Shown: positions 11,947 through 57,238 of the stretch, piece by piece
Layout: every line of letters starts with the position of its first letter
Numbering within the stretch: the stretch's first letter is position 1
IMG/VR virus record: IMGVR_UViG_3300022225_001767
Source of the DNA: a virus
Strand: one strand, 5' to 3'
Length of the DNA: 64,000 nucleotides
Position numbers and translations under genes: made by a program
Notes under the pieces: generated by a model
Database searches by the model: none
What the model was told of the DNA's origin: nothing
What the model saw: the letters and a program-made list of their open reading frames with translations, nothing else

Positions 11947-12075
11947 TCTATCTCCCCGCTTTTTATTTTTTGTTATTATACCACTCAACACCCACAAGTT
12001 CAATAAAATAACAGGCCGTCAGTTTTAGTGCTAATGTGATAACATCAATACACAATCTATCATCTGGGATGAAAT

Positions 12076-12540
12076 ATGTCTAACCTCAAACTTTGCTTAT
12101 CATGCGGCAAGCCTCTCACCGAAAAATCATCTAGGGCCGCAGGTATGGGGCCGGTGTGTCGAGCTGAATCTTACGCTATGGCAAGGCAATCTCACGCAAA
12201 AATGGACGACCTTTTCTCATCGCCCCGGGCTGACTTTGATGTTACTAAAATTAAACGTTACTTGCTGATTGAAGATAAAGTTAAGGGTAATGCCACCGTT
12301 GAGCAAGACATTGATCATGTGCTTGATGCCTGTTTTAAAACGCACAGTATTTCCTCATGCTCCGGCGTACTGATACTCTCTCATTCAGGTGTTATCGATG
12401 CCGTTGAAATCGACAATTTAGGGAAATTCGTTGCTTTTATCCCTCTCTCTGCGCTCTCTGTTGATAGCGCTATACAGACAGCCAGCGCCATATCACTAAA
12501 ACAAACCGGCGAGCATTCAGGCTATCTCTCCATGCCTTGA
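12076..12540 (+). CDS. DUF6011-like zinc-binding domain protein
   Basis: CLSCGKPLTEKSSRAAGMGPVC. Confidence 0.7.
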   Translation: MSNLKLCLSCGKPLTEKSSRAAGMGPVCRAESYAMARQSHAKMDDLFSSPRADFDVTKIKRYLLIEDKVKGNATVEQDIDHVLDACFKTHSISSCSGVLILSHSGVIDAVEIDNLGKFVAFIPLSALSVDSAIQTASAISLKQTGEHSGYLSMP

Positions 12541-12547
12541 TGCTTAA

Positions 12548-12919
12548 TCATCGCAACGAGGCCTCATCAATGATCCCTTGCTTAATCAATCTCGGGCCAG
12601 TGATATTCTCCCAACTTTTCATTAACGCCAAAAGTCCATTGTTGCCGCCGCTATACTCAACTCGTGAAAATAGCGCAAGCAGCGATTTGACATGATACGC
12701 ATCCTGTTGGCAGGCGGCCTTTTCAGAGAACATGAGCGCTGCCCCCTTGAAGCATCTTTTTTCCATATCGATAATGGTTTTTTGAAGATGCCTAAACACC
12801 TGAGTCTCCACGAGCGTAGCTGATCGTTTTGGCACCGGGGGCTTTGTTGCCTCAGCAGAAGCGCCAAATGCCGCTGCATAAATTATTATGGCTATCAGTG
12901 ATTTCATAACAGTCCTCAT
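12548..12919 (-). CDS. Secreted hypothetical protein
   Basis: Signal peptide, paired Cys. Confidence 0.6.
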   Translation of the reverse strand: MRTVMKSLIAIIIYAAAFGASAEATKPPVPKRSATLVETQVFRHLQKTIIDMEKRCFKGAALMFSEKAACQQDAYHVKSLLALFSRVEYSGGNNGLLALMKSWENITGPRLIKQGIIDEASLR

Positions 12920-12966
12920 TTACGAGGTTTACAATATCACTACAGCAACATTTAAGCAACTATAAT

Positions 12967-13272
12967 CTACTCTCTGAATTGCGGTGGGATGACAAAAGGC
13001 AACGCCGGTGCCTCTATGTTTTCACCTTCGACACATAACTTTCCTTTGTACCGATAACGCACCACACCGTCCCCAGGCATTTTTTTCCCTACAACAACAC
13101 AACCATCATTAAGAAACACCGAAGCGTAGCCCTGATAATGCGTGACTTTCTTTATGTCACTTGCCACGATTTGTTGCACTGGCCCCGTGCTGGCTAGTGC
13201 GCCTTGACTAAAAAGCCCTGCAAAAATAAAACCTAAGATTGCTTTCATTGGATTTGGATTCCCTGCCATCAC
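12967..13272 (-). CDS. Secreted hypothetical protein
   Basis: Signal peptide, paired Cys. Confidence 0.6.
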   Translation of the reverse strand: MMAGNPNPMKAILGFIFAGLFSQGALASTGPVQQIVASDIKKVTHYQGYASVFLNDGCVVVGKKMPGDGVVRYRYKGKLCVEGENIEAPALPFVIPPQFRE

Positions 13273-13384
13273 ACACCTGCATCCTTAAATGCAATGCATG
13301 TGCCATCGAAATGATGGAATATTAATTGCATTGCTCTATTTCATATACACACTTTGCAAATTCATTTTTATTAGGGGTTTTACA

Positions 13385-14062
13385 ATGAATGTAAAAGCGG
13401 CTTTTTTTGCACTATTTGCCTTTTCCGGCATGGCGCAAGCAGACCTCGTAGCAACGGACTGGAAAACAAGCGGTGACGCTCTTGCCACACTGCATGAAGA
13501 AACGGGCATTGAGTGGCTCGACCTGACTCAAACCGACGGCATGTCTATTCAGGAAGTCATCAACCAAACTGCCCAGGGCGGTACATTCGAAGGGTGGCGC
13601 TTGCCAACTTTTGATGAAATCGACACGTTTGCTCGCTATGCGTTCAACGGAAAGCTTCCGGCCAACTCAACGCAAATACAAGGCGGAAATATTAACGAAC
13701 CTGTTTACCGTAAATTTACGGACATAATGGGCCTGACACATACGGCAAACAATAGGCGCCACGCATTCGGCTTAGGCGCAGACGATAATGGTGACATTTA
13801 TTCCTTTGGTGTATTGGGCTATACCTCAGGCGGGACATCCACGTTTTTTCGAAGTGGGTACAGTGAGGGATCTTATACCCTTGACACGGCAAGACCAGAG
13901 GCGGGCATTTATCTCGTTTCTGACGGCGGGGTGACGTACTCTTCAATCAACGATCCTACACTCAATGCGAGAAACCCAAATGCACCAATTAACAACGTGC
14001 CAGCGATGGGTTTAGCAGGCCTTGCTCTTGCAGGACTGGCGTTTAGGCGAAAAAAACAGTAG
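13385..14062 (+). CDS. PEP-CTERM-like surface protein
   Basis: Signal peptide; TGIEWLDLT motif; C-terminal NNVPAMGLAGLALAGLAFRRKKQ; sigma54-like TGGAATATTAATTGC at 13315-13329. Confidence 0.75.
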   Translation: MNVKAAFFALFAFSGMAQADLVATDWKTSGDALATLHEETGIEWLDLTQTDGMSIQEVINQTAQGGTFEGWRLPTFDEIDTFARYAFNGKLPANSTQIQGGNINEPVYRKFTDIMGLTHTANNRRHAFGLGADDNGDIYSFGVLGYTSGGTSTFFRSGYSEGSYTLDTARPEAGIYLVSDGGVTYSSINDPTLNARNPNAPINNVPAMGLAGLALAGLAFRRKKQ

Positions 14063-14078
14063 ACACACCACCAGAACT

Positions 14079-14106
14079 AAAAAGCCTTGCATTAGCAAGG
14101 CTTTTT
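14079..14106. terminator. Bidirectional intrinsic terminator
   Basis: AAAAAGCCTTGC-ATTA-GCAAGGCTTTTT. Confidence 0.85.
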
Positions 14107-14355
14107 GCTTTCTTTACTTAGTATCGCGCTAGCCTTCAGCACATCATTGTGTAATTTCTCAAAACGCTTTACCGCTCTGAATATAGAGTCTCTATTCACA
14201 CGCGTTGTCGCGTAGCTGGCCATGGAACCTCCATTAATGAGATAATTTTCAAGGCATGTCGCCACATCTTTGCTTTTACACCCAACGTGGGGAAGAACGC
14301 ACCTGATATAAGCAGGGTCAAACATTCCCTTTAGCACCTTTTTTCCATTTACCAT
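14092..14355 (-). CDS. Small HTH protein, PapB/FocB-like
   Basis: KSKDVATCLENYLINGGS...VNRDSIFRAVKRF resembles the PapB pattern; overlaps the dndC-like stop. Confidence 0.5.
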   Translation of the reverse strand: MVNGKKVLKGMFDPAYIRCVLPHVGCKSKDVATCLENYLINGGSMASYATTRVNRDSIFRAVKRFEKLHNDVLKASAILSKESKKPC

Positions 14356-17300
14356 TGCACACCCCCTTGTGCCACACTGACATCATTTAGTTTAAACGTG
14401 TTGCGGATCACACATGCTGCATTATCTTTTTTCTCCCATAATGCAGCACGAGCATCCAACGCCTCAAGCATCGCTTCTCTTGTGCCATCATTTTGATGCT
14501 TAGCCCAGCACATAAGCGTATTTAAGAACGCACCTTCGTTAAGCGCATCTTTCACATACGACACGGCACTTCGTTGCATGTCGGCCATTTTTTCGTGCAT
14601 CATTAGCGCGTGGTTGTTTACCGTTAGACGCGCCAGAGGGTTCTCCTCAAAATACTTCACCGCATCACGGTCGAGTAGCTTATACCAACCTTCAGGAGAA
14701 GAAAAATAGTCCATAAAGTGTGTCATTGCACCGTGGTATAGTAGCCAGTCACGAGGCACATTGATGTGGTCAAAATGCTTAAGCTCACCTTTCACGGCAT
14801 CCAGCATCACGAAGTAATTAGTGATTTCCTTAAAGCCTTCAATGTGATTGTTGTACAAACGCGTCAACTGCTGGCATACACCGTCAGAAAGATCTGACCA
14901 ATACTGATTGTAACGCTCTTTAAGCGCACGTCGCATTTCGTTGCGTGGTGCTCTTACGTTATCAAGTAAATATCTCGCTTTGTAGCTTCGATACGCTTTC
15001 ATATCCATCACGTCATCAATAGCAAGACCGATAGTGGCTTTTATTTCAGGTCGATATGTGCTCAGTTTAATCGGAATTCCAGCAGCACCGTCAAGCGCCA
15101 TTTGACGTAGCATGTCATCATCCAACATATACAGCCCCATCGACGCAAAATATTCCGTGCGCTTGATGATCCTTGCAGCATGACGCTTACTGTCTTGTGT
15201 TAGGTCAAAAATACCAAATCGCATCATCTGTTCAAAGGCGCGGGTACCGCTGTACTGATAAATACTTTCGCCTCGGCTTTCGCGGCGTTCCACAGTCTCG
15301 TCGTGTAACTGTAGCGCGCGCTCTATCCCATCCACCTCCATCCAATCTGCGGTACGAATATGGTCAAGCTGGTATCCACCCGTTACCGTTGACTCGAAGT
15401 AGTCCATTGTCCAATGTTGATAATTCAACTCAGGAACATATACAGGCACTGACTGCGTCACAGCCTCTTTATAAAGTGGAACCGGAGAACGCTCTTTAAA
15501 AGAGTATGTATTAAGGCTGGTGCGACCACGCTCGGTGATACGCATAACTCCACCTTTACGGCTCACTTTCTTCTTGGCACGGCGTGATGCCTGTATTTTC
15601 CTTTCCACATTTCGAGGTGATGACAAAAAGCGCTCAACCCCTTCAATGGCTGAAATAAAGTTAATATCCAGCGTTTCAGATGGGCGAAGGTGCGCATACT
15701 TTTCTCTGTCTTTAGGACTAAGAAAGTAATTGGCGTCACGCATTGGCATACGTGAGCTCATTGGCACTGGCTGCCACTCACAGTTTTCTGCTTTTTCATT
15801 GCCTAGGGTTAAAGGCATTGTGGCTGTTGGTCGCTGTGACACCGCGCCCGCCGTTGGCACCACCATAATGGCATCAGGGATATCATCAACCGTCGCACCT
15901 ACCGGGTCAACATCAGGGTAAGGGATGCGTTCACCGTTATATGTTTTGTCCCACACCGCCATCGCACGGTAGTGAGGCAGACGAACACCATCACGTGAGT
16001 GTATAAGGCTTAAAAACAACGAAATATCGGCTGACATCGGTTTTATCAAGTGACGCTGCGCATATTGCTTGTATACCGCTGCAAACTCTTCGCGATCTTC
16101 TTCACTGAGCAAAGGATCATTAATAATGTCGGCATAACCTTCATCGTCCATTTCTCGCCCATCAGCCACTAGCTGCTTAAAGCGTTCTGCACGGATGCGG
16201 TCGTCGTGTGTCGCCTGGCAAAGCAACCAGATGATTTTATCAATCGTTTTGGCGTTTAATACATTTGGCTGTAATGCCACTGCACCTGTTGTTTCATCAA
16301 CCGCTCTTGCATGCCATGTACGATTATTAATATCTTGGGCAACGTGCATGATGTAGTTTCTAACTTTAAGAATGTTGCCGCTGATAGCACGGTGACGTTT
16401 TTGCATCGCTTGCGCTTCACCAGACTTATCGGTAATACTTTTTGCACACAGGTAGCAACCAGTTCGCGCACTACCGCCACAACCACCCGCTTTTTGAGAG
16501 TCGCCTTTTAGGCGTTTTGATGATGTTGGGCAAGTGCCATCTTTTGAGTCGCTGTAAATCATATGAAGCAAACGATGGTTCTTCGCAAATGATGGAATGG
16601 GGGCGTTGCCCGAGTAGCTGTCAACCAGTGGCTTAGTGCCGGCTCGACGTAGAATAATCCACACTTCATCTGTGGTCATGCTAACAATAGGCGCAAATAC
16701 ACGTTCGTTATTTTGGTCGCACTCCACCAAGTCATCTGCTGTTAGGGTATCTTGCCCACGTTTTTTCAAAGAGGCGGCACGTTTAGCAGACTCTTCTGAG
16801 CGAGAACCAAGCAGGGTAACAACACGGTTACCATAATCTTTTGCCACTTGACGCTCAATGATCTCAGCATTGTCCACTTTCATGATTTGACTACAGTCAT
16901 TGTTAACGCGTGCCGTAGAGATTATTTTAAGACCACTAAGGAAAAGAGACGCCCACTGCTTAGCAAGAGGAGGTAGACCCACTCGCATATCGATGTTAAG
17001 CCCTTGCTTTTTACCAAAAGCGACAAGGCGATCTCGTTCATAAAGCGACAAAATTTGAACCAAGTGATTCTCTACGCCGGTATCAATGTTCGTGAACACT
17101 AAAGGGTGGTCCGCAGGCACTTTCCCTTCTTCAATGAGTTCTCTTAGCGCCTGAATAGCTGCCAGCATAACAACGGTACTGTCTTTACCAAAACTCGTCG
17201 CACACACGCACACATAGGATGTCATGATGACCTTAATGCTGTCTACGGCCTCTCTGAATAGCGCATAAGCTCTATTTTCAGCCGCAGCCGCCTCGACGCG

Positions 17301-17369
17301 ACCTGATGTTGCAGAACCTAAATCTATTCCCGCGATAAGATCTTGTGGTCGAATTGTGTTTACTGACAT
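14349..17369 (-). CDS. DndC-like PAPS-reductase-family Fe-S protein with long C-terminal extension
   Basis: PP-loop SFGKDS, CSQIMK, LLGSRSEESAKR, APIVSMTTDEVW, CP...CGGSARTGCYLC...DKS; total length 1006 aa. Confidence 0.82.
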   Translation of the reverse strand: MSVNTIRPQDLIAGIDLGSATSGRVEAAAAENRAYALFREAVDSIKVIMTSYVCVCATSFGKDSTVVMLAAIQALRELIEEGKVPADHPLVFTNIDTGVENHLVQILSLYERDRLVAFGKKQGLNIDMRVGLPPLAKQWASLFLSGLKIISTARVNNDCSQIMKVDNAEIIERQVAKDYGNRVVTLLGSRSEESAKRAASLKKRGQDTLTADDLVECDQNNERVFAPIVSMTTDEVWIILRRAGTKPLVDSYSGNAPIPSFAKNHRLLHMIYSDSKDGTCPTSSKRLKGDSQKAGGCGGSARTGCYLCAKSITDKSGEAQAMQKRHRAISGNILKVRNYIMHVAQDINNRTWHARAVDETTGAVALQPNVLNAKTIDKIIWLLCQATHDDRIRAERFKQLVADGREMDDEGYADIINDPLLSEEDREEFAAVYKQYAQRHLIKPMSADISLFLSLIHSRDGVRLPHYRAMAVWDKTYNGERIPYPDVDPVGATVDDIPDAIMVVPTAGAVSQRPTATMPLTLGNEKAENCEWQPVPMSSRMPMRDANYFLSPKDREKYAHLRPSETLDINFISAIEGVERFLSSPRNVERKIQASRRAKKKVSRKGGVMRITERGRTSLNTYSFKERSPVPLYKEAVTQSVPVYVPELNYQHWTMDYFESTVTGGYQLDHIRTADWMEVDGIERALQLHDETVERRESRGESIYQYSGTRAFEQMMRFGIFDLTQDSKRHAARIIKRTEYFASMGLYMLDDDMLRQMALDGAAGIPIKLSTYRPEIKATIGLAIDDVMDMKAYRSYKARYLLDNVRAPRNEMRRALKERYNQYWSDLSDGVCQQLTRLYNNHIEGFKEITNYFVMLDAVKGELKHFDHINVPRDWLLYHGAMTHFMDYFSSPEGWYKLLDRDAVKYFEENPLARLTVNNHALMMHEKMADMQRSAVSYVKDALNEGAFLNTLMCWAKHQNDGTREAMLEALDARAALWEKKDNAACVIRNTFKLNDVSVAQGGVQW

Positions 17370-17382
17370 GGGTATTCCTAGC

Positions 17383-17431
17383 GTGTTGACGTATTAAGCA
17401 TATCATAACAAACGTTGACCCTAGAGTCAAC
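17383..17431 (-). promoter_or_regulatory. sigma70 promoter with GTCAACAC motif and GTTGAC-N6-GTCAAC palindrome
   Basis: TTGACT-17-TATGAT-11-GTCAACAC(17390-17383); palindrome 17414-17431 over the -35. Confidence 0.75.
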
Positions 17432-17492
17432 GCCTGTATTCCATTCTATTGATGTTATCGACATCACGCCAAAGTGAACGACGGGTTTAGAG

Positions 17493-17792
17493 CTAGGCTG
17501 AACAGAGTGCGTTTTCTTTCGCAAAAGCAATAGCCTCTTTCGAATGGTAGATGATCAGCGAATGAACACCTGCCTGCAAAGGCCCGTCGCTTCCCACCTC
17601 CCACTCACGCGCGCTGGCACTTGCGGTTAGTCTGGTTACAGCCTCTTTTCGTTCACTATCAGGGAACAGCACAACCGTATAATCATGCTCACTTTTCCCA
17701 ATAATACTCATAACGGGCATGGTCAATCCGGGGCACCGTAATTCCATGGCATTGACCACGCCTCGGGACAAGTCGGATAATGCAATCGCCAT
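17493..17792 (-). CDS. Hypothetical protein
   Basis: 99 aa, starts 3 nt after the dndB-like stop. Confidence 0.6.
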   Translation of the reverse strand: MAIALSDLSRGVVNAMELRCPGLTMPVMSIIGKSEHDYTVVLFPDSERKEAVTRLTASASAREWEVGSDGPLQAGVHSLIIYHSKEAIAFAKENALCSA

Positions 17793-27951: not shown

Positions 27952-28175
27952 CACACTCACTCACACTACAAAAAAGTGTAAAAACTTATCTTGCTATTGA
28001 AACTTCTATTTTTCAGTGTTATTGTTTCTACAGTGCACCTTTTATCATTCCTCTGATTTTTTGGGTGCACCCCAACGTATTGTGCTTGGACACGCAATAC
28101 TCTCGCCTCTCTTTTTAGGGAGGCTTTTTTTTATCTTCCTATTGCTTTTATATCAATATACCCTATTATTACTAT

Positions 28176-28282
28176 AAGGTAGCCATCCACGGTTACCCAG
28201 CTCCCTCACCAACGTTTCCCCTCGGTGTTCTCTGGTATGTGTTGACAGCTATCATAAAGCATAAGGAAACGGAGGGAGCGCA
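28176..28282 (+). ncRNA. Candidate structured sRNA or leader RNA 1 carrying the anti-GTCAACAC seed
   Basis: TTGCTT-16-TATTAT promoter; 5' hairpin 28178-28197; long stem 28200-28219/28265-28279; loop holds ATGTGTTGAC 28237-28246. Confidence 0.55.
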
Positions 28283-28391
28283 CCTCTTCTATTGAAATCT
28301 CTTCCTATTTATGCCATAATTCATCTTGTCATCACATTGCATCAAGTAGCCCCCTTTATAACAATGAAAGCTGCTTGCCACAGGAGAATTC

Positions 28392-29234: not shown

Positions 29235-32200
29235 TTAGAAGCTGCTACCACCACTTCCGCCACACACTCCAGTGCGGTTCGTATTAGGCACTAATGCCTT
29301 GAACACCCCATTAAAGCTACTTGACGTTGTGGTTTTATACGGCGTTGAGCTACGTTGTAGCACACGACCTGACTGGTACGTATCCCAATAGTAGTACTTC
29401 GTCACAATCGTCGTCTCGCTCCATGTGTATTCGTCAGAGCGATAGAAGCCAATCGGGTTACGCGCACAGAACTCAGCTTCCGTATATTTCGCTTCAGGTG
29501 ACACTAAGCGTCGTCTTACGTTAGCGCTAGATTGAGACTGTGTTGTTCTCGTTTCCGTACTCACAACACTATCCTGCTTTGTCCCCGAACGGCGTCGCGT
29601 TGGGTTCGTGACCACAGTGTCATACTGGTAAGTGACGTTCGTTGTCGGAGCACTGCCATCACTGTAGTTCGTCGTAGTGGTAATCGCACGCTTCCTATTC
29701 TCTGTACAGCGCTGCGTCTGCGTTTTCGTTTCAAACGTGTAATATGAAGACTGCGCAGGTGTCCATGATGTACATGAATAACCTGTACGCTGCCATGCAC
29801 CGGTTGACTGCTGCGTCGTTAGTGTACGACTTTGGGTGTAGCTTCGCGAACCATTCTTAGTTTGCGTATGCACCGTATTTCCGTTTATCTTATGCACATA
29901 CGTAACTTGTTGCGGTTGCGTACAAGAACGAGTCTGCGTACTACCTCCCGTCCAGCTTCCACAGGTTGGACTGCCAACATCCTGCCACCCATTGTGAGTT
30001 ACAGCAACCGTACGGCTTTGCGTCTGATCCCATGTCGTGTTCTCAGGGCGCGTTGTTAACGTGTTAGAACCGGCTTTATACGTCCACGTTCTTGTCACAT
30101 CACGCTTGTAAGGACGTGTCTGGGTGTAGTTTGCTGTCTGGTTACCGTACGCTGGCGTAAACGTTCCATGGCTGTGTGTTCTTACCGTTGACCAACCACT
30201 GACTGATACCGATATTGTTCGAGATTGCGTACTACCCACATTCTGCGTATCTGTTTCTGTGTTTCGATACGTGTTGCTGCTGTAATCCCACGTGTAGTAG
30301 GTCGCACGGGTGCGCTTCTGAGGTTGATTACAGCTACGCGTTTGCGTGAAGTTAGACGTTTGCGTGCTTGGCGCTGGTGAATAGCCGCCACAGCTGAGCG
30401 AACCGTTATTGCTCCATCCAGACCAGCTACCGTACGCAATACCTTTCATGCGATTGGTTCGGCTCTGGCTCTGGTTTGTGGTACGCGTGTCATCACGCGT
30501 ACTTAACGTGGTCGAGCCCACTTTGTATGTCCACGTACGCTTCTGATCTTGTTTGTAGGTGCGCGTCTGGGTGTAGCTTGATGTGCGCGTACCAGGCTCA
30601 GGTGTCCAACTTGAGAATGAGTGGTTTCTAACATAGGTCCACCCCCCTCCCGTTACATCAACCGTTCGCGACTGCGTACTGCTTACATTCTGCGTGCCTG
30701 TTTCCGTGTTACGGTACGTGTTGCTGCTGTAATCCCATGTGTAATAGGTCGCACGCGTACGCTTCTGTGGCTGACTACAGCTGCGTGTTTGTGTGAAGTC
30801 AGACGTTTGCGTGCTTGGCGCTGGTGAATAGCCACCACAGCTGAGTGAACCGTTATTACTCCAACCTGACCAACCACCGTAAGCAATGCCTTTCATGCTG
30901 TTAGTACGGCTTTGGTTCATATCTACAGTGCGAGTTTCATCGCGTGTATCAAGTGTCGTCGTGCCAGCTTTATATGTCCACGTACGCTTTTGATCTTGCT
31001 TATAGGTGCGAGATTGCGTGTAATTTGATGTGCGCGAACCAGGCTCAGGTGTCCAACCAGTAAAGGTATGATTTCTTACATAGCTCCAGCCGCCTACTGA
31101 CACAGCCACTGTTCGAGACTGCGTGCTGCCTACCGTTTGCGTGTCTGTTTCTGTGTTGCGATATGTGTTGTCGCTATAAGCCCAACCATAATACGTTGCT
31201 CGCGTGCGTTTTTGCGGTTGACCACAACTTCTTGTTTGGGTGAAGTTGGATGTTTGCGTGCTTGGTGCTGGTGAGTAATTTCCACAACTCAAAGAACCAT
31301 TGTTGCTCCAACCAGACCAATTGCCATAAACGATGCCTGTCATAGAGTTGGTTCTGTTTTGGCTTTTGTTGACAGTGCGCGTTTCATCACGGGTATCTAG
31401 CGTAGTTGACCCCACCTTATACGCCCAAGTGCGCTTCTGGTCTTGCTTGTAGGTGCGAGATTGCGTGTAATTTGATGTGCGCGTGCCAGGCTCCGGCGTG
31501 TACGCTGAGTACGTATGATTTCTTACAGCACTCCAACCACCTACTGTTACATCAACCGTTCGCGACTGCGTGCTGCTTACATTCTGCGTGTCTGTTTCCG
31601 TGTTACGATACGTGTTGCTGCTGTAATCCCATGTGTAATAGGTCGCGCGCGTACGTTTCTGCGGCTGACTACAGCTGCGTGTTTGTGTGAAGTCAGACGT
31701 TTGCGTGCTTGGCGCTGGTGAATAACCACCACAATCTAATGAGCCGTTGTTACTCCAACCTGACCAACCACCGTAAGCAATGCCTTTCATGCTGTTAGTA
31801 CGGTTTTGGCTTTGGTCTACAGTGCGCGTTTCATCACGTGTATCAATCGTGGTTGTTCCCACCTTATATGTCCACGTACGCTTTTGATCTTGCTTGTAGG
31901 TGCGAGATTGCGTGTAATTTGATGTGCGCGAACCAGGCTCTGGCGTCCATCCCGAGTACGTGTGGTCTTTCACAGCACTCCAACCACCGACTGATACGTC
32001 AACGGTGCGAGATTGCGTCGAACCATTAGTGCGTGTTTCAGCATCCTTTTCTTTGAAAGTATCGCTGCTGTGCGCCCACGTGTAAAAAATGTCTCTTTCG
32101 CGTTTTTGTGGTGTGCCGCAGCTTCGCGTTTGAGAAAAGTCAGCCGTTTGCGTCGATGGTGTTGGCCCCCAGTTTCCACATGAAATGGAACCGGTGTTAG

Positions 32201-35180
32201 TCCATCCACCCCATGAGCCTTCTTTCAGACCATTCATGGTGTTGGTGCGATTTTGCGTCCGATCAATCGTTCTAGACTCACTTCGCGTACTCAATGTTTC
32301 AGCGCCCGCTTTGTATGTCCATGTACGAGTCTGATCTGTCTTATACGTGCGAGATTGCGTATAGCTCGACGTGCGCGTGCCAGGCTCTGGCGTATAGGCT
32401 GAATACGTATGGTTACGCACATTTGACCAGTTGCCTGCTGCAACATCAACCGTGCGAGATTGTGTGCTTGGTACGCTTTGCGTACCTGTCTCGTTACTTC
32501 TAAATGTATTACTGCTATATGTCCACTTATAATACGTTGCGCGTGTGCGCTTTTGTGGCTGCTGGCAGCTTCGTGTTTGCGTGAAGTCCGCTGTTTGTGT
32601 ACTTGGCGCAGGTGAGTAACCGCCGCAATTTAATGCGCCGTCATTGCTCCATGAAGACCAGCTTCCGTAAGCAATGCCTTCCATCTTATTAGTTCGCGTC
32701 TGCGTCACAGGAACACGTTTCGTCTCTTCAAAAGAGGCAATCTCTGTCCCGCCTACACTGTAAACACGCTCACGCTTTTGAGGCTGCTGACAATCTCTTG
32801 ACTGCGTGTAATCAGCCGTTTTAGTGCCAGGTTCACCACCCCAAGCGTCACAGCTTTCAACTGAACCATAATTTACCCAGTTAGTATAGCTTACTTTAAC
32901 AGCACGTGACTGCGTTGAACCGTCAGTGCGCGTTTCCGTTTCAGTCTCTTTAAACGTATCTGAGCTGTGCGCCCATGTGTAAAAAGTGTCACGCTCACGC
33001 TTCTGAGGTGTACCACAATCTCTTGATTGCTGGTAGTTTGCTGTTTGCGAAGCAGGCTCAGGCCCCCATGCGCCGCAGCTAATAGGACCTGTGTTTGTCC
33101 AGCCACTCCACGCATCATTTTTAACGCCATTCATCGAATTGGTACGTGTTTCACTCTTGTCGAGTGTTCGCGTTTCTTGTCGAGTGCTTAGCGTTGTTGT
33201 ACCGTCAGCATAGCTCCATGTTCTTACCTCGTCTTGCTTGAATGTGCGCGACTGCGTGTAGCTTGATGTACGTGCACCGGGTGCTGGCGTCCATCCGCTG
33301 TACGTATTTTTATCCACTAGCGACCACGACGATGGTGTAACAGTTACCGTACGAGAATCCGTTCTTGATGCCGTACCCGTATCAGTCTGCGTTTCTTTAA
33401 AGGTGTTGTCACCGTAAGTCCAGCTGTAGTGGACGTCTCTGGTTCGCTCTTGTGGACGGGTGCATGTTCTTGATTGGCTAAAGTTGGCTGTTTGCGCGCC
33501 TACTGCTGGTGAGAATGTGCCGCAGGTTTCTGCACCACTGTCAGCAAAAGGTGACCATGCGCCATAAACAAGGCCATCCATCTTATTAAGACGAGATTGT
33601 GATACGCGAACCGTTTGCGATTCTTCTACGCGTTTCAGCTCACTGCCTGATGCAGCATAAATGCGTTCTCTTACTTGAAGTTGATCGCACTCTCTTGATT
33701 GTGTGTAGTCAGAGGTATTGCTGCCAGGCTCTGGCGACCATGCAGAACAATTTTGCACACCGTTCTTGTTTGTCCACGATGTCCAGTCTACGGTTACTGT
33801 ACGCGATTCCGTTGTCGGATCGGTTCGCGTTTCCGTTTCTTCAGCTTTAAACGTATTGTCACTGTGCGTCCACGTATAGAAAGTGTCACGCTTTCGCTCT
33901 TGAGCCGTGCCGCAGTCGCGCGTTTGTGTAAATGCGCTGGTTTGCGCATCAGGCGCAGCGCCCCATGCGCCACACACAGTGGCCGCAGTGTCAGTCCATG
34001 AAGACCAACTATCAGCTACGACACCTTCCATGACGTTTTTACGCGTCTGCGTTACATCAATATTTTTACTTTCTTTAACCGTGCTTAATGTCTCTCCACC
34101 CGCGGTGTAAATACGATCTCGCGTTTGAGGCTGTTCACAGCTTCGTGTCTGGTCATAACTGGCAACTCTTCCCTGAGGCTCTGTTCCCCACACACTACAA
34201 CTAACTACATCACCCTCGTTAGTCCATGGTGTAAATGTCACGCCTACCGTTCTGTTTTCCGTACGCGTCACTGTTTGCTCATGGGTTTCAGTTCGGTTGA
34301 GCGTTTCTTTACCTGACACCCATACATCGAAGAAGTCCTGTGTTCTCTCCTGATCGCGCGAACAATCTCTCTCCTGACCAAAATCAGCCAATTGCCCGCC
34401 GACAGACGGAGACCAAACGGCACAGTCATAATTTCCGGTTACATCTACCCATGGAGATGGCGTGTCTGGACGAATTCCGTCAATCTCATCACGCTGCCCA
34501 ATCTCTGGTCGCGTTTGCTCAACCGTTATGGTTTGTTCCTCACTGTCAATGCGCTTTGGTGTCTCAGCACCCGATGCCCATACATTGTAAACGTTTCTGC
34601 TTCGAGTCTGATCTTGCGAGCAATCGCGCGCTTGCGTGAAGGGTTCATAAAGTCTTACGTCTGATGTCGATGGATCCCACACAGAGCAGTCGTAAGGGGC
34701 ACCGCTATTAGACCACTCAGGCCATGCATCTGCACGCTCACCATCAATGAAGTCACGCGTACCAATATTATTTTGATAATCGCCAACAGAGATGGAACGG
34801 GTATCTTCGAAAGTGTCACCTAATTTTGTGCGTTGTGAAACAGGGTTGAAGAGAATAGGTGTCGCATTTCTTACTTGTGGCTGCTGGCACACACGCGACT
34901 GTTGAAAAGATTCACCCCAATCCTTTGTGTTTGGATCAGGTTGCCAACCCGAACAAGAGCTAAACCCACCTGAATTCACCCAAGGTGTGTAGTTGTAATT
35001 GATGACAATCCACTCAGGAACGTTCACTTTGTTTTCTATGTTCATTTTGAAGCGATAAATAGGTTTGTCATTACTCGCTTCTTGAGCAAAGGCATCTGCT
35101 GATAATGCCAGCCCCCCCGTAAGGGCGGAAAGTAACATAATCGCCGTATTCTTTTTCCTGACCGTGAATTGACTTTTCAT
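29235..35180 (-). CDS. Giant secreted repeat protein with thrombospondin-type-1-like repeats (putative adhesin)
   Basis: Signal peptide; about 149-aa units with WSGWS..C..TQTRSC..PQKRTR; Thr/Ser/Trp/Arg-rich. Confidence 0.85.
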   Translation of the reverse strand: MKSQFTVRKKNTAIMLLSALTGGLALSADAFAQEASNDKPIYRFKMNIENKVNVPEWIVINYNYTPWVNSGGFSSCSGWQPDPNTKDWGESFQQSRVCQQPQVRNATPILFNPVSQRTKLGDTFEDTRSISVGDYQNNIGTRDFIDGERADAWPEWSNSGAPYDCSVWDPSTSDVRLYEPFTQARDCSQDQTRSRNVYNVWASGAETPKRIDSEEQTITVEQTRPEIGQRDEIDGIRPDTPSPWVDVTGNYDCAVWSPSVGGQLADFGQERDCSRDQERTQDFFDVWVSGKETLNRTETHEQTVTRTENRTVGVTFTPWTNEGDVVSCSVWGTEPQGRVASYDQTRSCEQPQTRDRIYTAGGETLSTVKESKNIDVTQTRKNVMEGVVADSWSSWTDTAATVCGAWGAAPDAQTSAFTQTRDCGTAQERKRDTFYTWTHSDNTFKAEETETRTDPTTESRTVTVDWTSWTNKNGVQNCSAWSPEPGSNTSDYTQSRECDQLQVRERIYAASGSELKRVEESQTVRVSQSRLNKMDGLVYGAWSPFADSGAETCGTFSPAVGAQTANFSQSRTCTRPQERTRDVHYSWTYGDNTFKETQTDTGTASRTDSRTVTVTPSSWSLVDKNTYSGWTPAPGARTSSYTQSRTFKQDEVRTWSYADGTTTLSTRQETRTLDKSETRTNSMNGVKNDAWSGWTNTGPISCGAWGPEPASQTANYQQSRDCGTPQKRERDTFYTWAHSSDTFKETETETRTDGSTQSRAVKVSYTNWVNYGSVESCDAWGGEPGTKTADYTQSRDCQQPQKRERVYSVGGTEIASFEETKRVPVTQTRTNKMEGIAYGSWSSWSNDGALNCGGYSPAPSTQTADFTQTRSCQQPQKRTRATYYKWTYSSNTFRSNETGTQSVPSTQSRTVDVAAGNWSNVRNHTYSAYTPEPGTRTSSYTQSRTYKTDQTRTWTYKAGAETLSTRSESRTIDRTQNRTNTMNGLKEGSWGGWTNTGSISCGNWGPTPSTQTADFSQTRSCGTPQKRERDIFYTWAHSSDTFKEKDAETRTNGSTQSRTVDVSVGGWSAVKDHTYSGWTPEPGSRTSNYTQSRTYKQDQKRTWTYKVGTTTIDTRDETRTVDQSQNRTNSMKGIAYGGWSGWSNNGSLDCGGYSPAPSTQTSDFTQTRSCSQPQKRTRATYYTWDYSSNTYRNTETDTQNVSSTQSRTVDVTVGGWSAVRNHTYSAYTPEPGTRTSNYTQSRTYKQDQKRTWAYKVGSTTLDTRDETRTVNKSQNRTNSMTGIVYGNWSGWSNNGSLSCGNYSPAPSTQTSNFTQTRSCGQPQKRTRATYYGWAYSDNTYRNTETDTQTVGSTQSRTVAVSVGGWSYVRNHTFTGWTPEPGSRTSNYTQSRTYKQDQKRTWTYKAGTTTLDTRDETRTVDMNQSRTNSMKGIAYGGWSGWSNNGSLSCGGYSPAPSTQTSDFTQTRSCSQPQKRTRATYYTWDYSSNTYRNTETGTQNVSSTQSRTVDVTGGGWTYVRNHSFSSWTPEPGTRTSSYTQTRTYKQDQKRTWTYKVGSTTLSTRDDTRTTNQSQSRTNRMKGIAYGSWSGWSNNGSLSCGGYSPAPSTQTSNFTQTRSCNQPQKRTRATYYTWDYSSNTYRNTETDTQNVGSTQSRTISVSVSGWSTVRTHSHGTFTPAYGNQTANYTQTRPYKRDVTRTWTYKAGSNTLTTRPENTTWDQTQSRTVAVTHNGWQDVGSPTCGSWTGGSTQTRSCTQPQQVTYVHKINGNTVHTQTKNGSRSYTQSRTLTTQQSTGAWQRTGYSCTSWTPAQSSYYTFETKTQTQRCTENRKRAITTTTNYSDGSAPTTNVTYQYDTVVTNPTRRRSGTKQDSVVSTETRTTQSQSSANVRRRLVSPEAKYTEAEFCARNPIGFYRSDEYTWSETTIVTKYYYWDTYQSGRVLQRSSTPYKTTTSSSFNGVFKALVPNTNRTGVCGGSGGSSF
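30000..34800 (-). repeat. In-frame tandem repeats, period about 447-450 bp
   Basis: M[KTNED]G[IVL] unit starts recur at about 30450, 30895, 31340, 31790, 32235, 32680, 33135, 33580 and 34030. Confidence 0.85.
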
Positions 35181-35399
35181 AATTTTCTCTCTCTTGTTTA
35201 TTCGCCGCAGCAGCGCAACATAAGCAAACAGTTCAAAGTGTGTCTCTTTTTATCCACAGTAAGGTATCACTTTTCTGAAAAAACGACGGGATAAATGTGT
35301 TTTTTTTAAATATTTATACCTTTTTGTCGCTAATTCACCCATATAACAAATTGCTGTAAAAAATCTTGACACCTAAAGCGAAGTGTGAGAATCTTCTAA

Positions 35400-35546
35400 G
35401 CATAGATTTTATGAGCAGGTGCAACAGTGCCTGCCACAGCTCCGCCACCCCGACCTCTGTGATGTGTTGACGCTATTCACGCTAAAAAAATGGGGTGGCA
35501 CCCTCTCACTAGTGGTGGTGAACTGGCCGGCGAAAGCCGGCCTTTT
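35400..35546 (+). ncRNA. Candidate sRNA 2 carrying the anti-GTCAACAC seed
   Basis: TTGACA at 35366; 5' hairpin 35415-35434; stem GCCACCCC/GGGGTGGC 35444-35451/35492-35499; seed ATGTGTTGAC 35462-35471; terminator 35525-35546; no ORF. Confidence 0.65.
35525..35546 (+). terminator. Intrinsic terminator
   Basis: GGCCGGC-GAAA-GCCGGCC-TTTT; T-tract only on the + side. Confidence 0.8.
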
Positions 35547-35777
35547 ACTATCCAAATCAATACCAATCTAATTTCTTGCCCTCTCTAACGTTAACCTCAA
35601 CTTAACCACTTCAATCACACTTGTTGCATTTTTGTTTAATTTTATGTGTTATCTAAATTTTACTGTTGACTTTGTGTTCAGTTCTGGTATTATTTAAACC
35701 GTCAAACAAACAGCAAGCCAATAACGCTTGTTAAACATGAATATATTATTCACATCAACCACCACAGGATATACATT

Positions 35778-36818
35778 ATGAAGAAAACATCTCTATTTGC
35801 ATCTGTTGCCCTAGCTTGCGCGATGCCATTTGCAGCATCAGCTGAACTCTCACTAATGGGTTATAATGTTGCGGATGTACCAAGCAACACAACACTAAGT
35901 GAAGTCAATGAAACAACAAGTTACATCGGAGACGTCACTTACCTCACCGCCATTCAAAAAACTGACGACAATAGCACTTACAGCGTGTCTTTGTCTGTTG
36001 ATTTTGACGGTGCTTATAATGCCGCTGCACGATGTACCACACTATCTAACTCTCTGTTTGAAAGCTACGCTGAAGAATATTCTGCAACGCAAGGCGACGA
36101 CAGTTCGGCTCTTACTTTCACTGATGAATATGGCGCAACGTTACGCCTAGAAGACGGCTGTTATACCAGCAACACGCTCTCTTTGACACTAAGCTCTCCG
36201 ACTGAAATCAGTGCGCCTTTAGGCGATACAGAAGAAGCGCTGCTTTACATCATCACCACCGATGCCCCACTGTCTTCAGACGGCGACGTTGAGCAAGGTG
36301 AGCCTGAAGATGGCGACCATAAATATTACGGCCCCGGCCCAACGCCGGTTGACGTTGAAGCGACTGGATCGATTCGTCCTATTGGCAAGGTAACCCAAAA
36401 ACCTGCCAAAGAAGGCAACCACAAGTTCTACGGCCCGGGCCCTGTACAGCCTATCTACAAGACCGCTGAAGCAGGCATTAGTAAACTTCGTCCTGTTGGC
36501 AAGGTAACCCAAAAACCTGCTAAAGAAGGCAACCACAAGTTTTACGGCCCAGGTCCTGTACAACCTATCTACAAGACCGCTGAAGCAGGCATTAGTAAAC
36601 TTCGTCCTGTTGGCAAGGTAACCCAAAAACCTGCTAAAGAAGGCAATCATAAGCGCTTCGGTCCGGGCCCTGTACAGCCCATCTACAAGACCGCTGAAGC
36701 AGGTGTTAGCAGCTTGCGCCCTGTTGGCAAGGTAACCCAAAAACCTGCCAAAGAAGGCAACCACAAGTTCTACGGCCCGGGCCCTGTAAAACCAGTTAAC
36801 CCCTTTGGACTTCGCTAA
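35778..36818 (+). CDS. Secreted protein with acidic N-domain and basic 38-aa tandem repeats
   Basis: Signal peptide; unit RPVGKVTQKPAKEGNHKFYGPGPVQPIYKTAEAGISKL. Confidence 0.85.
   Translation: MKKTSLFASVALACAMPFAASAELSLMGYNVADVPSNTTLSEVNETTSYIGDVTYLTAIQKTDDNSTYSVSLSVDFDGAYNAAARCTTLSNSLFESYAEEYSATQGDDSSALTFTDEYGATLRLEDGCYTSNTLSLTLSSPTEISAPLGDTEEALLYIITTDAPLSSDGDVEQGEPEDGDHKYYGPGPTPVDVEATGSIRPIGKVTQKPAKEGNHKFYGPGPVQPIYKTAEAGISKLRPVGKVTQKPAKEGNHKFYGPGPVQPIYKTAEAGISKLRPVGKVTQKPAKEGNHKRFGPGPVQPIYKTAEAGVSSLRPVGKVTQKPAKEGNHKFYGPGPVKPVNPFGLR
36370..36790 (+). repeat. 114-bp in-frame tandem repeat (about 3.7 copies)
   Basis: GGCAAGGTAACCCAAAAACCTG recurs every 114 bp. Confidence 0.9.
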
Positions 36819-56746: not shown

Positions 56747-57238
56747 ATGAAATATGTTATCTGCTCTACTCTCGCAACAATGCTTGCAATCACGCCTATG
56801 CTAACCCATGCAAAGAAACCTCCCGCTGTGCTGCCTATCATCGACACGCTTGGAGGTATAACGTTGGGTAAAGTCAACCCTGATGCGCGAGGATGGGTGA
56901 TGACCCCTGAAAATAACGGCGGCGTCCGTTACCAACAGGTTCCTCAGCGTTTCACTAGTGATGAAGAATATCACATTGTGCTTGCAGAATACCTCACTGA
57001 CGATAGCGATATTGCTGTTGAGTCTAGTATTACTGTGACGTTTTCGTCTACAACATATTGTCAATCTGAATTCTCAGCACTATACCGCCGCTACGCTAAA
57101 GTGCACAACGAGTCGCTCGCCCCAAAAAACTCAGAGACGACTTGGATTACATCTACCGACCATGTGTTGACATGGCGAGAGCATTGCGGCGATGAGACCC
57201 CCACGTTCTCTATGACGCTATCAAAAAACCCGCAATAA
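56747..57238 (+). CDS. Secreted hypothetical protein
   Basis: AAGGA RBS, signal peptide. Confidence 0.7.
   Translation: MKYVICSTLATMLAITPMLTHAKKPPAVLPIIDTLGGITLGKVNPDARGWVMTPENNGGVRYQQVPQRFTSDEEYHIVLAEYLTDDSDIAVESSITVTFSSTTYCQSEFSALYRRYAKVHNESLAPKNSETTWITSTDHVLTWREHCGDETPTFSMTLSKNPQ

Follow-up and report, generated by a model that had tools for sequence, protein, structure and literature searches.

A conserved and expressed small RNA with a paralogue in an uncharacterised marine mobile element, and a repeated mRNA 5' tag as its putative target

Near position 35,400 of the virus record IMGVR_UViG_3300022225_001767, the stretch between two divergent genes raises the question whether it encodes an RNA of its own and, if so, what such an RNA would recognise. 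All positions given here refer to the window, that is, the whole 64,000-nucleotide stretch of DNA that was analysed. A preliminary description made from the letters had proposed a stand-alone small RNA (sRNA) which represses translation in trans. That the + strand carries a stand-alone gene for a non-coding RNA of about 145-150 nt is now backed by the 5' boundary of RNA contigs, by conservation and by covariation of the stems, and the region 35399-35547 is very probably a genuine RNA gene. The reading as a trans-repressor is plausible, with a predicted pairing in its support. The coordinates of the features are collected in Table 1.

Table 1. Positions of the sRNA, its predicted parts, its paralogue and the neighbouring mRNA end in the window
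Feature	Position	Strand	Basis or remark
-35-like hexamer TTGACA of the sRNA promoter	35366-35371	+	kept in L002, L009 and the distant L004
Extended -10-like element TG-t-GAGAAT	35384-35392	+	spacing from the -35 only 15 nt
Predicted sRNA transcript, about 149 nt	35399-35547	+	5' end from contig starts; 3' end from the terminator only
Hairpin P1, 8 bp, loop AACA	35415-35434	+	two G.U pairs on the + strand
Helix P2, GCCACCCCG / UGGGGUGGC, enclosing the seed domain	35444-35499	+	fold
CCUCU, single-stranded, anti-Shine-Dalgarno-like	35454-35458	+	unpaired probability 0.9-1.0
Apical hairpin P3 (UGUGA-U-GUG-UUGA-CGC-UAU-UCACG), presenting the seed	35458-35481	+	fold
Invariant seed AUGUGUUGAC, complement of the mRNA 5' tag GUCAACACA(U)	35462-35471	+	relatives
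Small hairpin UCAC-UAGUGGUG-GUGA, 5' of the terminator	35506-35521	+	predicted from sequence
Intrinsic terminator GGCCGGC-GAAA-GCCGGCC-UUUU	35525-35546	+	L004 copy identical; U-tract only 4 nt
Divergent giant-gene mRNA 5' end (context, outside the sRNA)	35217-35238	-	contig ends, four RNA runs
Paralogous RNA, same P1/P2/P3 plan and seed (28237-28246)	28172-28290	+	different stems

To place the locus among its relatives, we used metagenome contigs reached through the neighbouring proteins. In direct searches, blastn of the intergenic region found no match in plasmid or phage collections, and pattern scans gave no match in viral contigs, one chance match only in genome contigs (in a Clostridia MAG) and, in metagenome contigs, one true near-identical homologue (L009) together with four chance matches. 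L009 is near-identical to the window over its available part, and L002 shares 96% identity in PcfJ and 95% in the intergenic region. The distant relative L004 has a PcfJ 42% identical and a giant protein 52% identical to those of the window, and its RNA homologue lies upstream of the giant gene in the equivalent divergent position. Between the window and L002 the RNA differs at only 2 of its 149 nt (1.3%), namely in the P1 loop and just 3' of P2, while the flanks differ by 12% (promoter), 30% (downstream spacer), 4% (between the two starts) and 4-12% (elsewhere). The L004 homologue carries an extra 5' hairpin and a second inserted hairpin after P1; GTGATGTGTTGAC and TTCACG are unchanged in it, and over the 36 nt between the start of GGTGGTGAAC and the end of the terminator it matches the window exactly.

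The ORFs that overlap the locus are short (48-50 aa). The L004 insertions between P1 and P2 disrupt both of these frames, and the short minus-strand ORF after AGAGG is not kept in L004, so a small protein gene at the locus was rejected for want of conserved frames. A known RNA family, whose exclusion had been set as a check on the candidate, was also excluded: Rfam returned 0 matches at gathering thresholds across the whole window, and chance-level matches only for 35150-35800 at E <= 10 (best E = 2.3).

For the promoter, the TTGACA claimed at 35366 was read there in the letters. The -10 box had been called weak, and the + strand hexamer is indeed poor; it is better read as an extended -10 element. 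TGnGAGA is common to all relatives, and the last two bases of the -10 differ among them (GAGAAC in L002, GAGAGT in L009 and GAGACT in L004, whose homologue has TTGACA followed by TG-c-GAGACT). These variable bases, with the final T absent from the GAGAAC of L002 and GAGAGT in L009, weaken the promoter assignment, and a consensus promoter scan did not report the extended -10-like element.

Transcription is documented by sequencing runs. Marine DNA runs from many studies, one of them labelled as a single organism, contain this exact stretch, as do six metatranscriptome runs, and the assemblies of four RNA runs (X17-X20), whose contigs carry no strand, level or 3' end, were placed on 34700-36300. 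It turned out that the contigs on the sRNA side start at 35402 (X18), 35417 (X19) and 35419 (X20), with the -35 and the extended -10-like element just upstream, and that 35239-35401 is uncovered in these three runs between flanks with depths of hundreds to thousands; X17 has a low-depth contig beginning at 35320. An uncovered gap between deep flanks argues against DNA carry-over. On the far side of the gap, the giant-gene contigs end at 35217, 35217, 35237 and 35238, and in X19 the sequencing adaptor follows directly after 35238, which places the start of the giant-gene mRNA near 35238, well away from the motif at 35471. The sRNA region is expressed, and its 5' boundary lies near 35400. A start about 7 nt past GAGAAT (35387-35392) predicts 35399-35401, which fits the observed contig starts; we infer the exact start from this agreement and the 3' end from the terminator. 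The + strand is assigned from the promoter position, the terminator and the pair statistics given below.

In all four RNA runs one contig spans the sRNA, the terminator and the gene of a 346-aa protein. This continuity past the terminator requires that some transcripts read through it, or that they overlap the mRNA made from the promoter at 35666-35693, and a long leader may account for part of the transcription. If the contigs, unbroken from about 35402 into the 346-aa ORF, and the U-tract of just 4 nt are taken at their strongest, the locus would be mainly a cis-acting 5' leader of that gene, with the terminator as an attenuator and the short RNA as a by-product. We regard this as quite unlikely, as at depths in the thousands trace read-through suffices for contig continuity, the 346-aa gene has its own promoter (35666-35693, a 10/12 consensus match, kept in L002), and the spacer from the terminator to that promoter is the least conserved part. 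Besides, the L004 homologue is followed by a convergent minus-strand gene end with its terminator and by no + strand gene, so that the RNA stands alone in the L004 lineage and lacks the feature expected of a riboswitch or attenuator leader, namely the same downstream gene in all homologues.

The predicted fold agrees largely with what had been proposed. The + strand has a minimum free energy of -58.2 kcal/mol, versus -45.6 +/- 4.1 for shuffles (z = -3.0, with 0 of 200 as good), and the - strand has z = -2.2 against its shuffles. The 5' hairpin GCAGGTGC-AACA-GTGCCTGC, said to favour the + strand by two G.U pairs, is P1. The 8-bp stem, GCCACCCC(G) with (T)GGGGTGGC, is P2, whose arms are GCCACCCCG at 35444-35452 and TGGGGTGGC at 35491-35499. 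The terminator (GGCCGGC-GAAA-GCCGGCC-TTTT in the DNA) is present and was also returned by a terminator search. For a defined 3' end speaks that this terminator is identical in the distant L004, and against it that the contigs pass through the terminator and that its U-tract has 4 nt; the tail, UUUUAC, holds four U, fewer than the about six or more of an Hfq-type tail. The L004 fold holds a helix UUCAC...GUGAA corresponding to the small hairpin 5' of the terminator.

Accessibility was computed for three folded sequences, the window RNA, its L004 homologue and the paralogous RNA at 28.2 kb. All three present the seed at the apex of a small hairpin enclosed by P2, with UUGA unpaired at 0.8-1.0, the CU-rich stretch 5' of the seed mostly unpaired at 0.9-1.0 (0.7-1.0 in the paralogue) and the GUG of the seed mostly paired in a weak stem of 2-3 bp. 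An exposed seed, as described earlier, thus holds for UUGA (0.8-0.9 in the window RNA) but not for GUG, which is unpaired at about 0.1-0.2 only and lies within the weak apical hairpin.

The paralogue has no canonical terminator, and its stretch is found in at least 14 RNA runs. Orthologues of it lie in L020 (about 17335-17450, - strand), which is the other half of the L004 contig, and in L021 (about 470-592, - strand), a third lineage with a PIF1 86% identical. The paralogue and both orthologues retain AUGUGUUGAC and the preceding UCUCUG, and the seed is identical in the window RNA, L002, L009 and L004 as well. The independent lineages number only two for the sRNA and three for the paralogue. 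Since MAFFT alignments with the paralogues were out of register at the stems, the helices were tabulated by hand and checked by script, and the covariation claim refers to these hand-tabulated helices across five independent sequences.

Generally, the helices keep pairing in P1, P2 and P3 while their letters change, and AUGUGUUGAC is invariant in the five independent sequences. P1 reads GCAGGCGC/GCACCUGC in L004, with one C.A mismatch; in the paralogue class its stems are replaced and the loop is kept (AUCCAC, UCCACG, AUCCUC). P2 shows a compensatory change from A-U to G-C in L004 (GCCGCCC/GGGCGGC) and from U-A to C-G in the paralogue class. In P3 a G.U pair becomes A-U in the paralogue class, or there are three wobble pairs, and the two paralogue classes differ in the P3a stem by covarying pairs (U-A / G.U / A-U, and G-C / U-A). 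CUCU is retained at the position of 35454-35458 in all five independent sequences. Over these sequences there are 13 G.U pairs that would mismatch on the other strand, versus one C.A mismatch. In short, the sRNA family is new, conserved and expressed, it has a paralogue, and it resides in an uncharacterised marine element.

What the seed could recognise is suggested by the window itself. The seed claimed as complementary to a motif, TGTGTTGAC at 35463-35471, and CCTCT at 35454-35458 are both found. The motif GTCAACAC occurs in 20 copies in the window, whereas an 8-mer counted over both strands should be met there about 2 times. Some 15 of the copies follow sigma-70-like promoters, which consist of a -35-like hexamer (often TTGAC), a spacer of 16-18 nt and a -10-like hexamer (GATAAT in five), and the copies lie 3-11 nt past the -10, mostly 6-9 nt. 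From this spacing the motif is predicted to form the first 8-9 nt of leaders of 20-30 nt, a 5' tag GTCAACAC(A) that is followed after 0-11 nt by a Shine-Dalgarno sequence and then by the start codon, with 12-25 nt from tag to start. The ORFs of the tagged leaders range from 65 to 1006 aa and lie, as putative targets, 1.4 to 34 kb from the sRNA. Among the tagged genes are three DNA methyltransferases (two of them C5), a DndB-like and a DndC-like gene, a PIF1 helicase, a nucleotidyltransferase-PcfJ protein, a cpYpsA SLOG protein and several of unknown function. The tag is also found at promoters in L002, L003, L004, L020 and L021, and as it is the same in all known lineages, there is no covariation between tag and anti-tag. 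Neither tag enrichment nor an sRNA was found with the distant PcfJ homologues (L011-L013) or in L014-L019, whose giant TSP1_2 proteins are 38-44% identical.

Three copies of GTCAACAC have neither a promoter nor an ORF, at 35471 (-) and 28246 (-), both inside the RNA candidates, and at 57171 (-). The last belongs to a third anti-tag copy, in a hairpin at 57158-57176; as the ORF around it plausibly codes for a secreted protein, this copy was rejected and is probably due to chance. At the sRNA locus, the minus strand reads GTCAACACATCACAGAGG, a tag followed by a Shine-Dalgarno-like AGAGG, and the locus always lies upstream of a minus-strand gene. It might on these grounds be a functionless, decayed tagged promoter-leader cassette in inverted orientation, or a minus-strand leader of the giant gene. 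Such an origin is highly improbable: on the minus strand a -35 and a -10 at a suitable distance are both missing, the stems covary and have 13 G.U pairs speaking for the + strand against one mismatch, the region is better conserved than its flanks, and the frame after AGAGG is absent as a conserved frame in L004. The leader form is excluded by the giant-gene mRNA start near 35238, with 35239-35401 uncovered in three RNA runs.

A more serious question is whether the motif acts as RNA or as DNA. The RNA could be real while GTCAAC(AC) is primarily a double-stranded DNA site, a half-site for a repressor encoded by the element, which recurs at +1 of the tagged promoters and inside both RNA genes; the duplex concerned is GTCAACACA, and the RNA would have its role elsewhere, for example in protein binding or with a different pairing target. 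The distance from tag to -10 is nearly fixed (6-9 nt in most promoters), as an operator would have it. Besides, L022, a related element whose PIF1 is 55% identical, repeats another leader, CTACACACACAGGAG, directly after the -10 of at least 8 promoters, which indicates that repeated promoter-leader cassettes are a habit of the group and need not exist for the sake of sRNA control; within 14 kb of L022 no complement of CTACACACACAGGAG was seen. We nevertheless consider the operator unlikely. The motif lies at the tip of P3 in five of five independent RNAs with a covarying stem, and a DNA site needs neither; the flanking CUCU is conserved and single-stranded, and no repressor gene was recognised within the window.

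For recognition as RNA, we predicted the duplexes between the sRNA and the tagged leaders. As prediction with the full-length sRNA gave sprawling and meaningless structures, a 26-nt core with accessibility terms was used. The pairing with the 42453 leader, described earlier as having one bulge, is reproduced, with 9 bp at the tag and 5 bp of CCUCU:AGAGG around a 4-nt bulge (GUGA) on the sRNA side, a hybrid energy of -20.1 and a net energy of about -10.8 kcal/mol. For the tagged leaders the hybrid energies are -16 to -23 kcal/mol and the net energies, for most of them, -3 to -13 kcal/mol, with the best values (-11 to -13 kcal/mol) in leaders 848, 23693, 36903, 40960, 42453 and 51265. CCUC(U) is also predicted to pair with the Shine-Dalgarno sequence of several targets, leaving a bulge of 4-5 nt in between. 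Random 40-nt windows gave a hybrid mean of -12.9 (sd 3.6, 1% tail at -22.2), and the tagged leaders overlap the upper tail of this background. By energy they are thus not set apart, and what carries the argument is that the exact 9-mer recurs and is conserved. Among the genes of the window, none was recognised as coding for an RNA chaperone.

From the complementarity to the tag and the conservation of the loop we infer the trans action and the direction of its effect: the sRNA probably silences the tagged genes as a group. According to this model, an RNA of about 150 nt would be transcribed on the + strand, starting at about 35399 and stopping with the terminator at 35547, and would fold into the 5' hairpin P1, the GC-rich P2 around P3, a short hairpin and the intrinsic terminator. 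P3 would display the invariant AUGUGUUGAC, with UUGA in the loop and the single-stranded CCUCU just 5' of it. The P3 loop would touch GUCAACACA, the nine nucleotides with which about 15 mRNAs of this mobile element would begin, the duplex would then extend into the weak P3 stem, and CCUCU would additionally pair, in many targets, with the Shine-Dalgarno sequence 0-11 nt beyond the tag. As the leaders have only 20-30 nt, the duplex would cover the landing site of the ribosome and block initiation, and mRNA decay could come afterwards. The paralogue at 28.2 kb, with its identical seed, would act alongside, and the pair would serve as a shared off-switch for the DNA-modification and establishment genes of the element. 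That a trans base-pairing RNA binds the common 5' tag and masks the ribosome-binding site next to it, and that its paralogue does likewise, is in our estimate about evenly balanced between true and false. The same complementarity, with the tag at the predicted first nucleotides of the mRNA, could also act positively or as a buffer, for instance as a shield of the 5' end against decay or through titration of the sRNA by the tagged mRNAs. A positive or buffering effect seems rather improbable, since with leaders of 20-30 nt and a Shine-Dalgarno sequence 0-11 nt from the tag the duplex should hinder ribosome binding, and the Shine-Dalgarno sequence itself can be paired by CCUCU.

A broader form of the repressor model is post-transcriptional addressing, in which the DNA-modification and establishment genes would all be transcribed with one 9-nt 5' tag, and two paralogous kissing-loop sRNAs would read it along with the neighbouring Shine-Dalgarno sequence, so that the whole set of genes is switched off together; we put it forward tentatively, as a possibility with somewhat more against it than for it. 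If true, what defines a bacterial regulon here would be an RNA label on the 5' terminus of the mRNA and not a DNA operator in common, and it might serve as a timer once the element has reached a new cell. The element would then coordinate about 15 scattered operons by one mRNA tag and dedicated reader RNAs. As a design, uniform tagging is simpler and more portable, and builders of synthetic circuits could take an interest in it. The DNA in marine samples of at least 18 studies and the RNA in several metatranscriptomes indicate that the system is active in nature.

The element itself has a GC content of about 45% and carries four DNA methyltransferases, DndB-like and DndC-like genes, two PcfJ genes, PIF1, an SLT-LysM gene and giant secreted TSP1_2-repeat proteins. 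Its nearest plasmid matches are weak and come from Alteromonas and Vibrio; together with the GC content they allow the guess of a host resembling a marine gamma-proteobacterium. Ten proteins searched against PHROGs gave no phage structural signal, and the element may be an island, a plasmid or phage-like. In L004, two tyrosine recombinases and small DUF6262/VPA1267 genes are clustered beside the module.

Finally, we compared the sRNA with known systems; a shallow literature search on the motif and on leading-region sRNAs found no precedent. The c4 antisense RNA of phages P1 and P7 (immI region) is cut from the operon transcript which it controls and has essentially one target region. Like c4, the sRNA is a short structured RNA of a mobile element whose exposed segments could pair with separate sites including the ribosome-binding site, and if the model holds, element genes would be shut off without full-length antisense overlap. 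Unlike c4, it has its own promoter and terminator, the tag is repeated at about 15 unlinked promoters, and there is no sequence or Rfam similarity. CopA/CopT of R1, FinP/traJ of F and RNA I/RNA II of ColE1 are opposite-strand RNAs fully complementary to a single target. With these plasmid kissing-loop antisense RNAs the sRNA shares a recognition sequence at the tip of a stem-loop, suited to loop-first contact, and a short U-tail in place of a typical Hfq module; its loop UUGA also fits the YUNR (Y-U-N-R) pattern described for fast-pairing antisense loops. It differs from them in being unlinked to its putative targets, with which it shares 9-10 nt and a further 4-5 nt at the Shine-Dalgarno sequence, and its opposite strand has neither the gene nor the transcript of a cis-encoded antisense pair of the CopA, FinP or Sok type.

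The Qrr sRNAs of Vibrio comprise several paralogues with one conserved seed; they are chromosomal, depend on sigma-54 and Hfq and bind unrelated target leaders. The likeness lies in two paralogues with an identical seed and diverged stems, proposed to act on several mRNAs near the ribosome-binding site, and in the guessed setting of a marine gamma-proteobacterium, while the targets proposed here share one 5'-end tag, and Qrr is in Rfam, which gave no match here. In anti-Shine-Dalgarno sRNAs with exposed C/U-rich motifs, such as the csRNAs of streptococci, LhrC of Listeria and RsaE/RoxS, the C-rich motif is itself the seed and targeting is broad and of low specificity. The sRNA resembles them in an exposed pyrimidine stretch, CCUCU, that can pair with the Shine-Dalgarno sequence, and in the existence of paralogues, but here CCUCU is accessory to a specific 10-nt seed. 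In conclusion, the sRNA belongs to neither P1 c4, CopA, FinP nor Qrr, as it is not cis-encoded, has no Hfq-type tail and has no Rfam match. The sRNA regulons known to us are built from unrelated leaders, and the unusual part here is the putative target, a single 5' tag on about 15 unlinked mRNAs of a mobile element.

The 5' end of the mRNA of the giant gene, the divergent minus-strand neighbour of the candidate sRNA, lies near 35238 (-), as seen in four assemblies from the marine metatranscriptome runs (window 35217-35300). Just upstream of this end there is a block, GTATCACTTTTCT...GACGG, which is common to the window and the distant relative L004 and is probably the promoter region of the giant gene. 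The encoded protein is a member of an extensive family that shows faint TSP1_2 matches and has numerous marine homologues (38-64% identity), and two genes of this family stand in tandem in L004 (1-6504). Besides, directly after the PcfJ gene L004 carries two Phage_integrase genes, a 689-aa gene and small DUF6262/VPA1267 genes (11959-17639), a cluster that suggests a recombinase-driven genomic island.

On the other side of the sRNA, the adjoining 346-aa gene contains 114-nt tandem repeats (window 36373-36793, +), and its copy in the close relative L002 encodes 306 aa, indicating that the repeat number differs among close relatives. Its promoter is followed by CGTCAAACAAAC (window 35694-35710, +), a degenerate sequence resembling the tag, the 9 bases predicted to begin about 15 mRNAs of the element, and the L002 counterpart, GTTAAACAA, is more degraded still. 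The anti-tag, the complement of the tag, also occurs in a hairpin, CCAUG-UGUUGA-CAUGG, at window 57158-57176 (+), located in the 3' portion of an ORF that probably encodes a secreted protein (56747-57238), where the presence of the anti-tag is likely due to chance.

A related element, L022 (400-12500), encodes a PIF1 helicase with 55% identity, a thymidylate kinase and a ribonucleotide reductase small subunit. The complement of its leader was not found in the 14 kb of L022 examined; this leader, CTACACACACAGGAG(A), is a different shared one, which follows at least eight L022 promoters.

Judging from sequence features, window 28030-28132 (+) looks like a third small RNA, whose terminator and middle hairpin have counterparts in L020, the other half of the L004 contig (~17500-17560), and in L021, a third lineage.

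Features of the giant gene and of the candidate third small RNA in the window
Feature	Position	Strand	Belongs to
Promoter-like site	27997-28025		Candidate third small RNA
Hairpin GUGCACC...GGGUGCAC, loop with CCUCU	within 28030-28132	+	Candidate third small RNA
Second hairpin	within 28030-28132	+	Candidate third small RNA
Strong terminator, then eight U	28105-28124	+	Candidate third small RNA
Gene of 1981-aa secreted protein, made of 447-nt repeats	29235-35180	-	Giant gene
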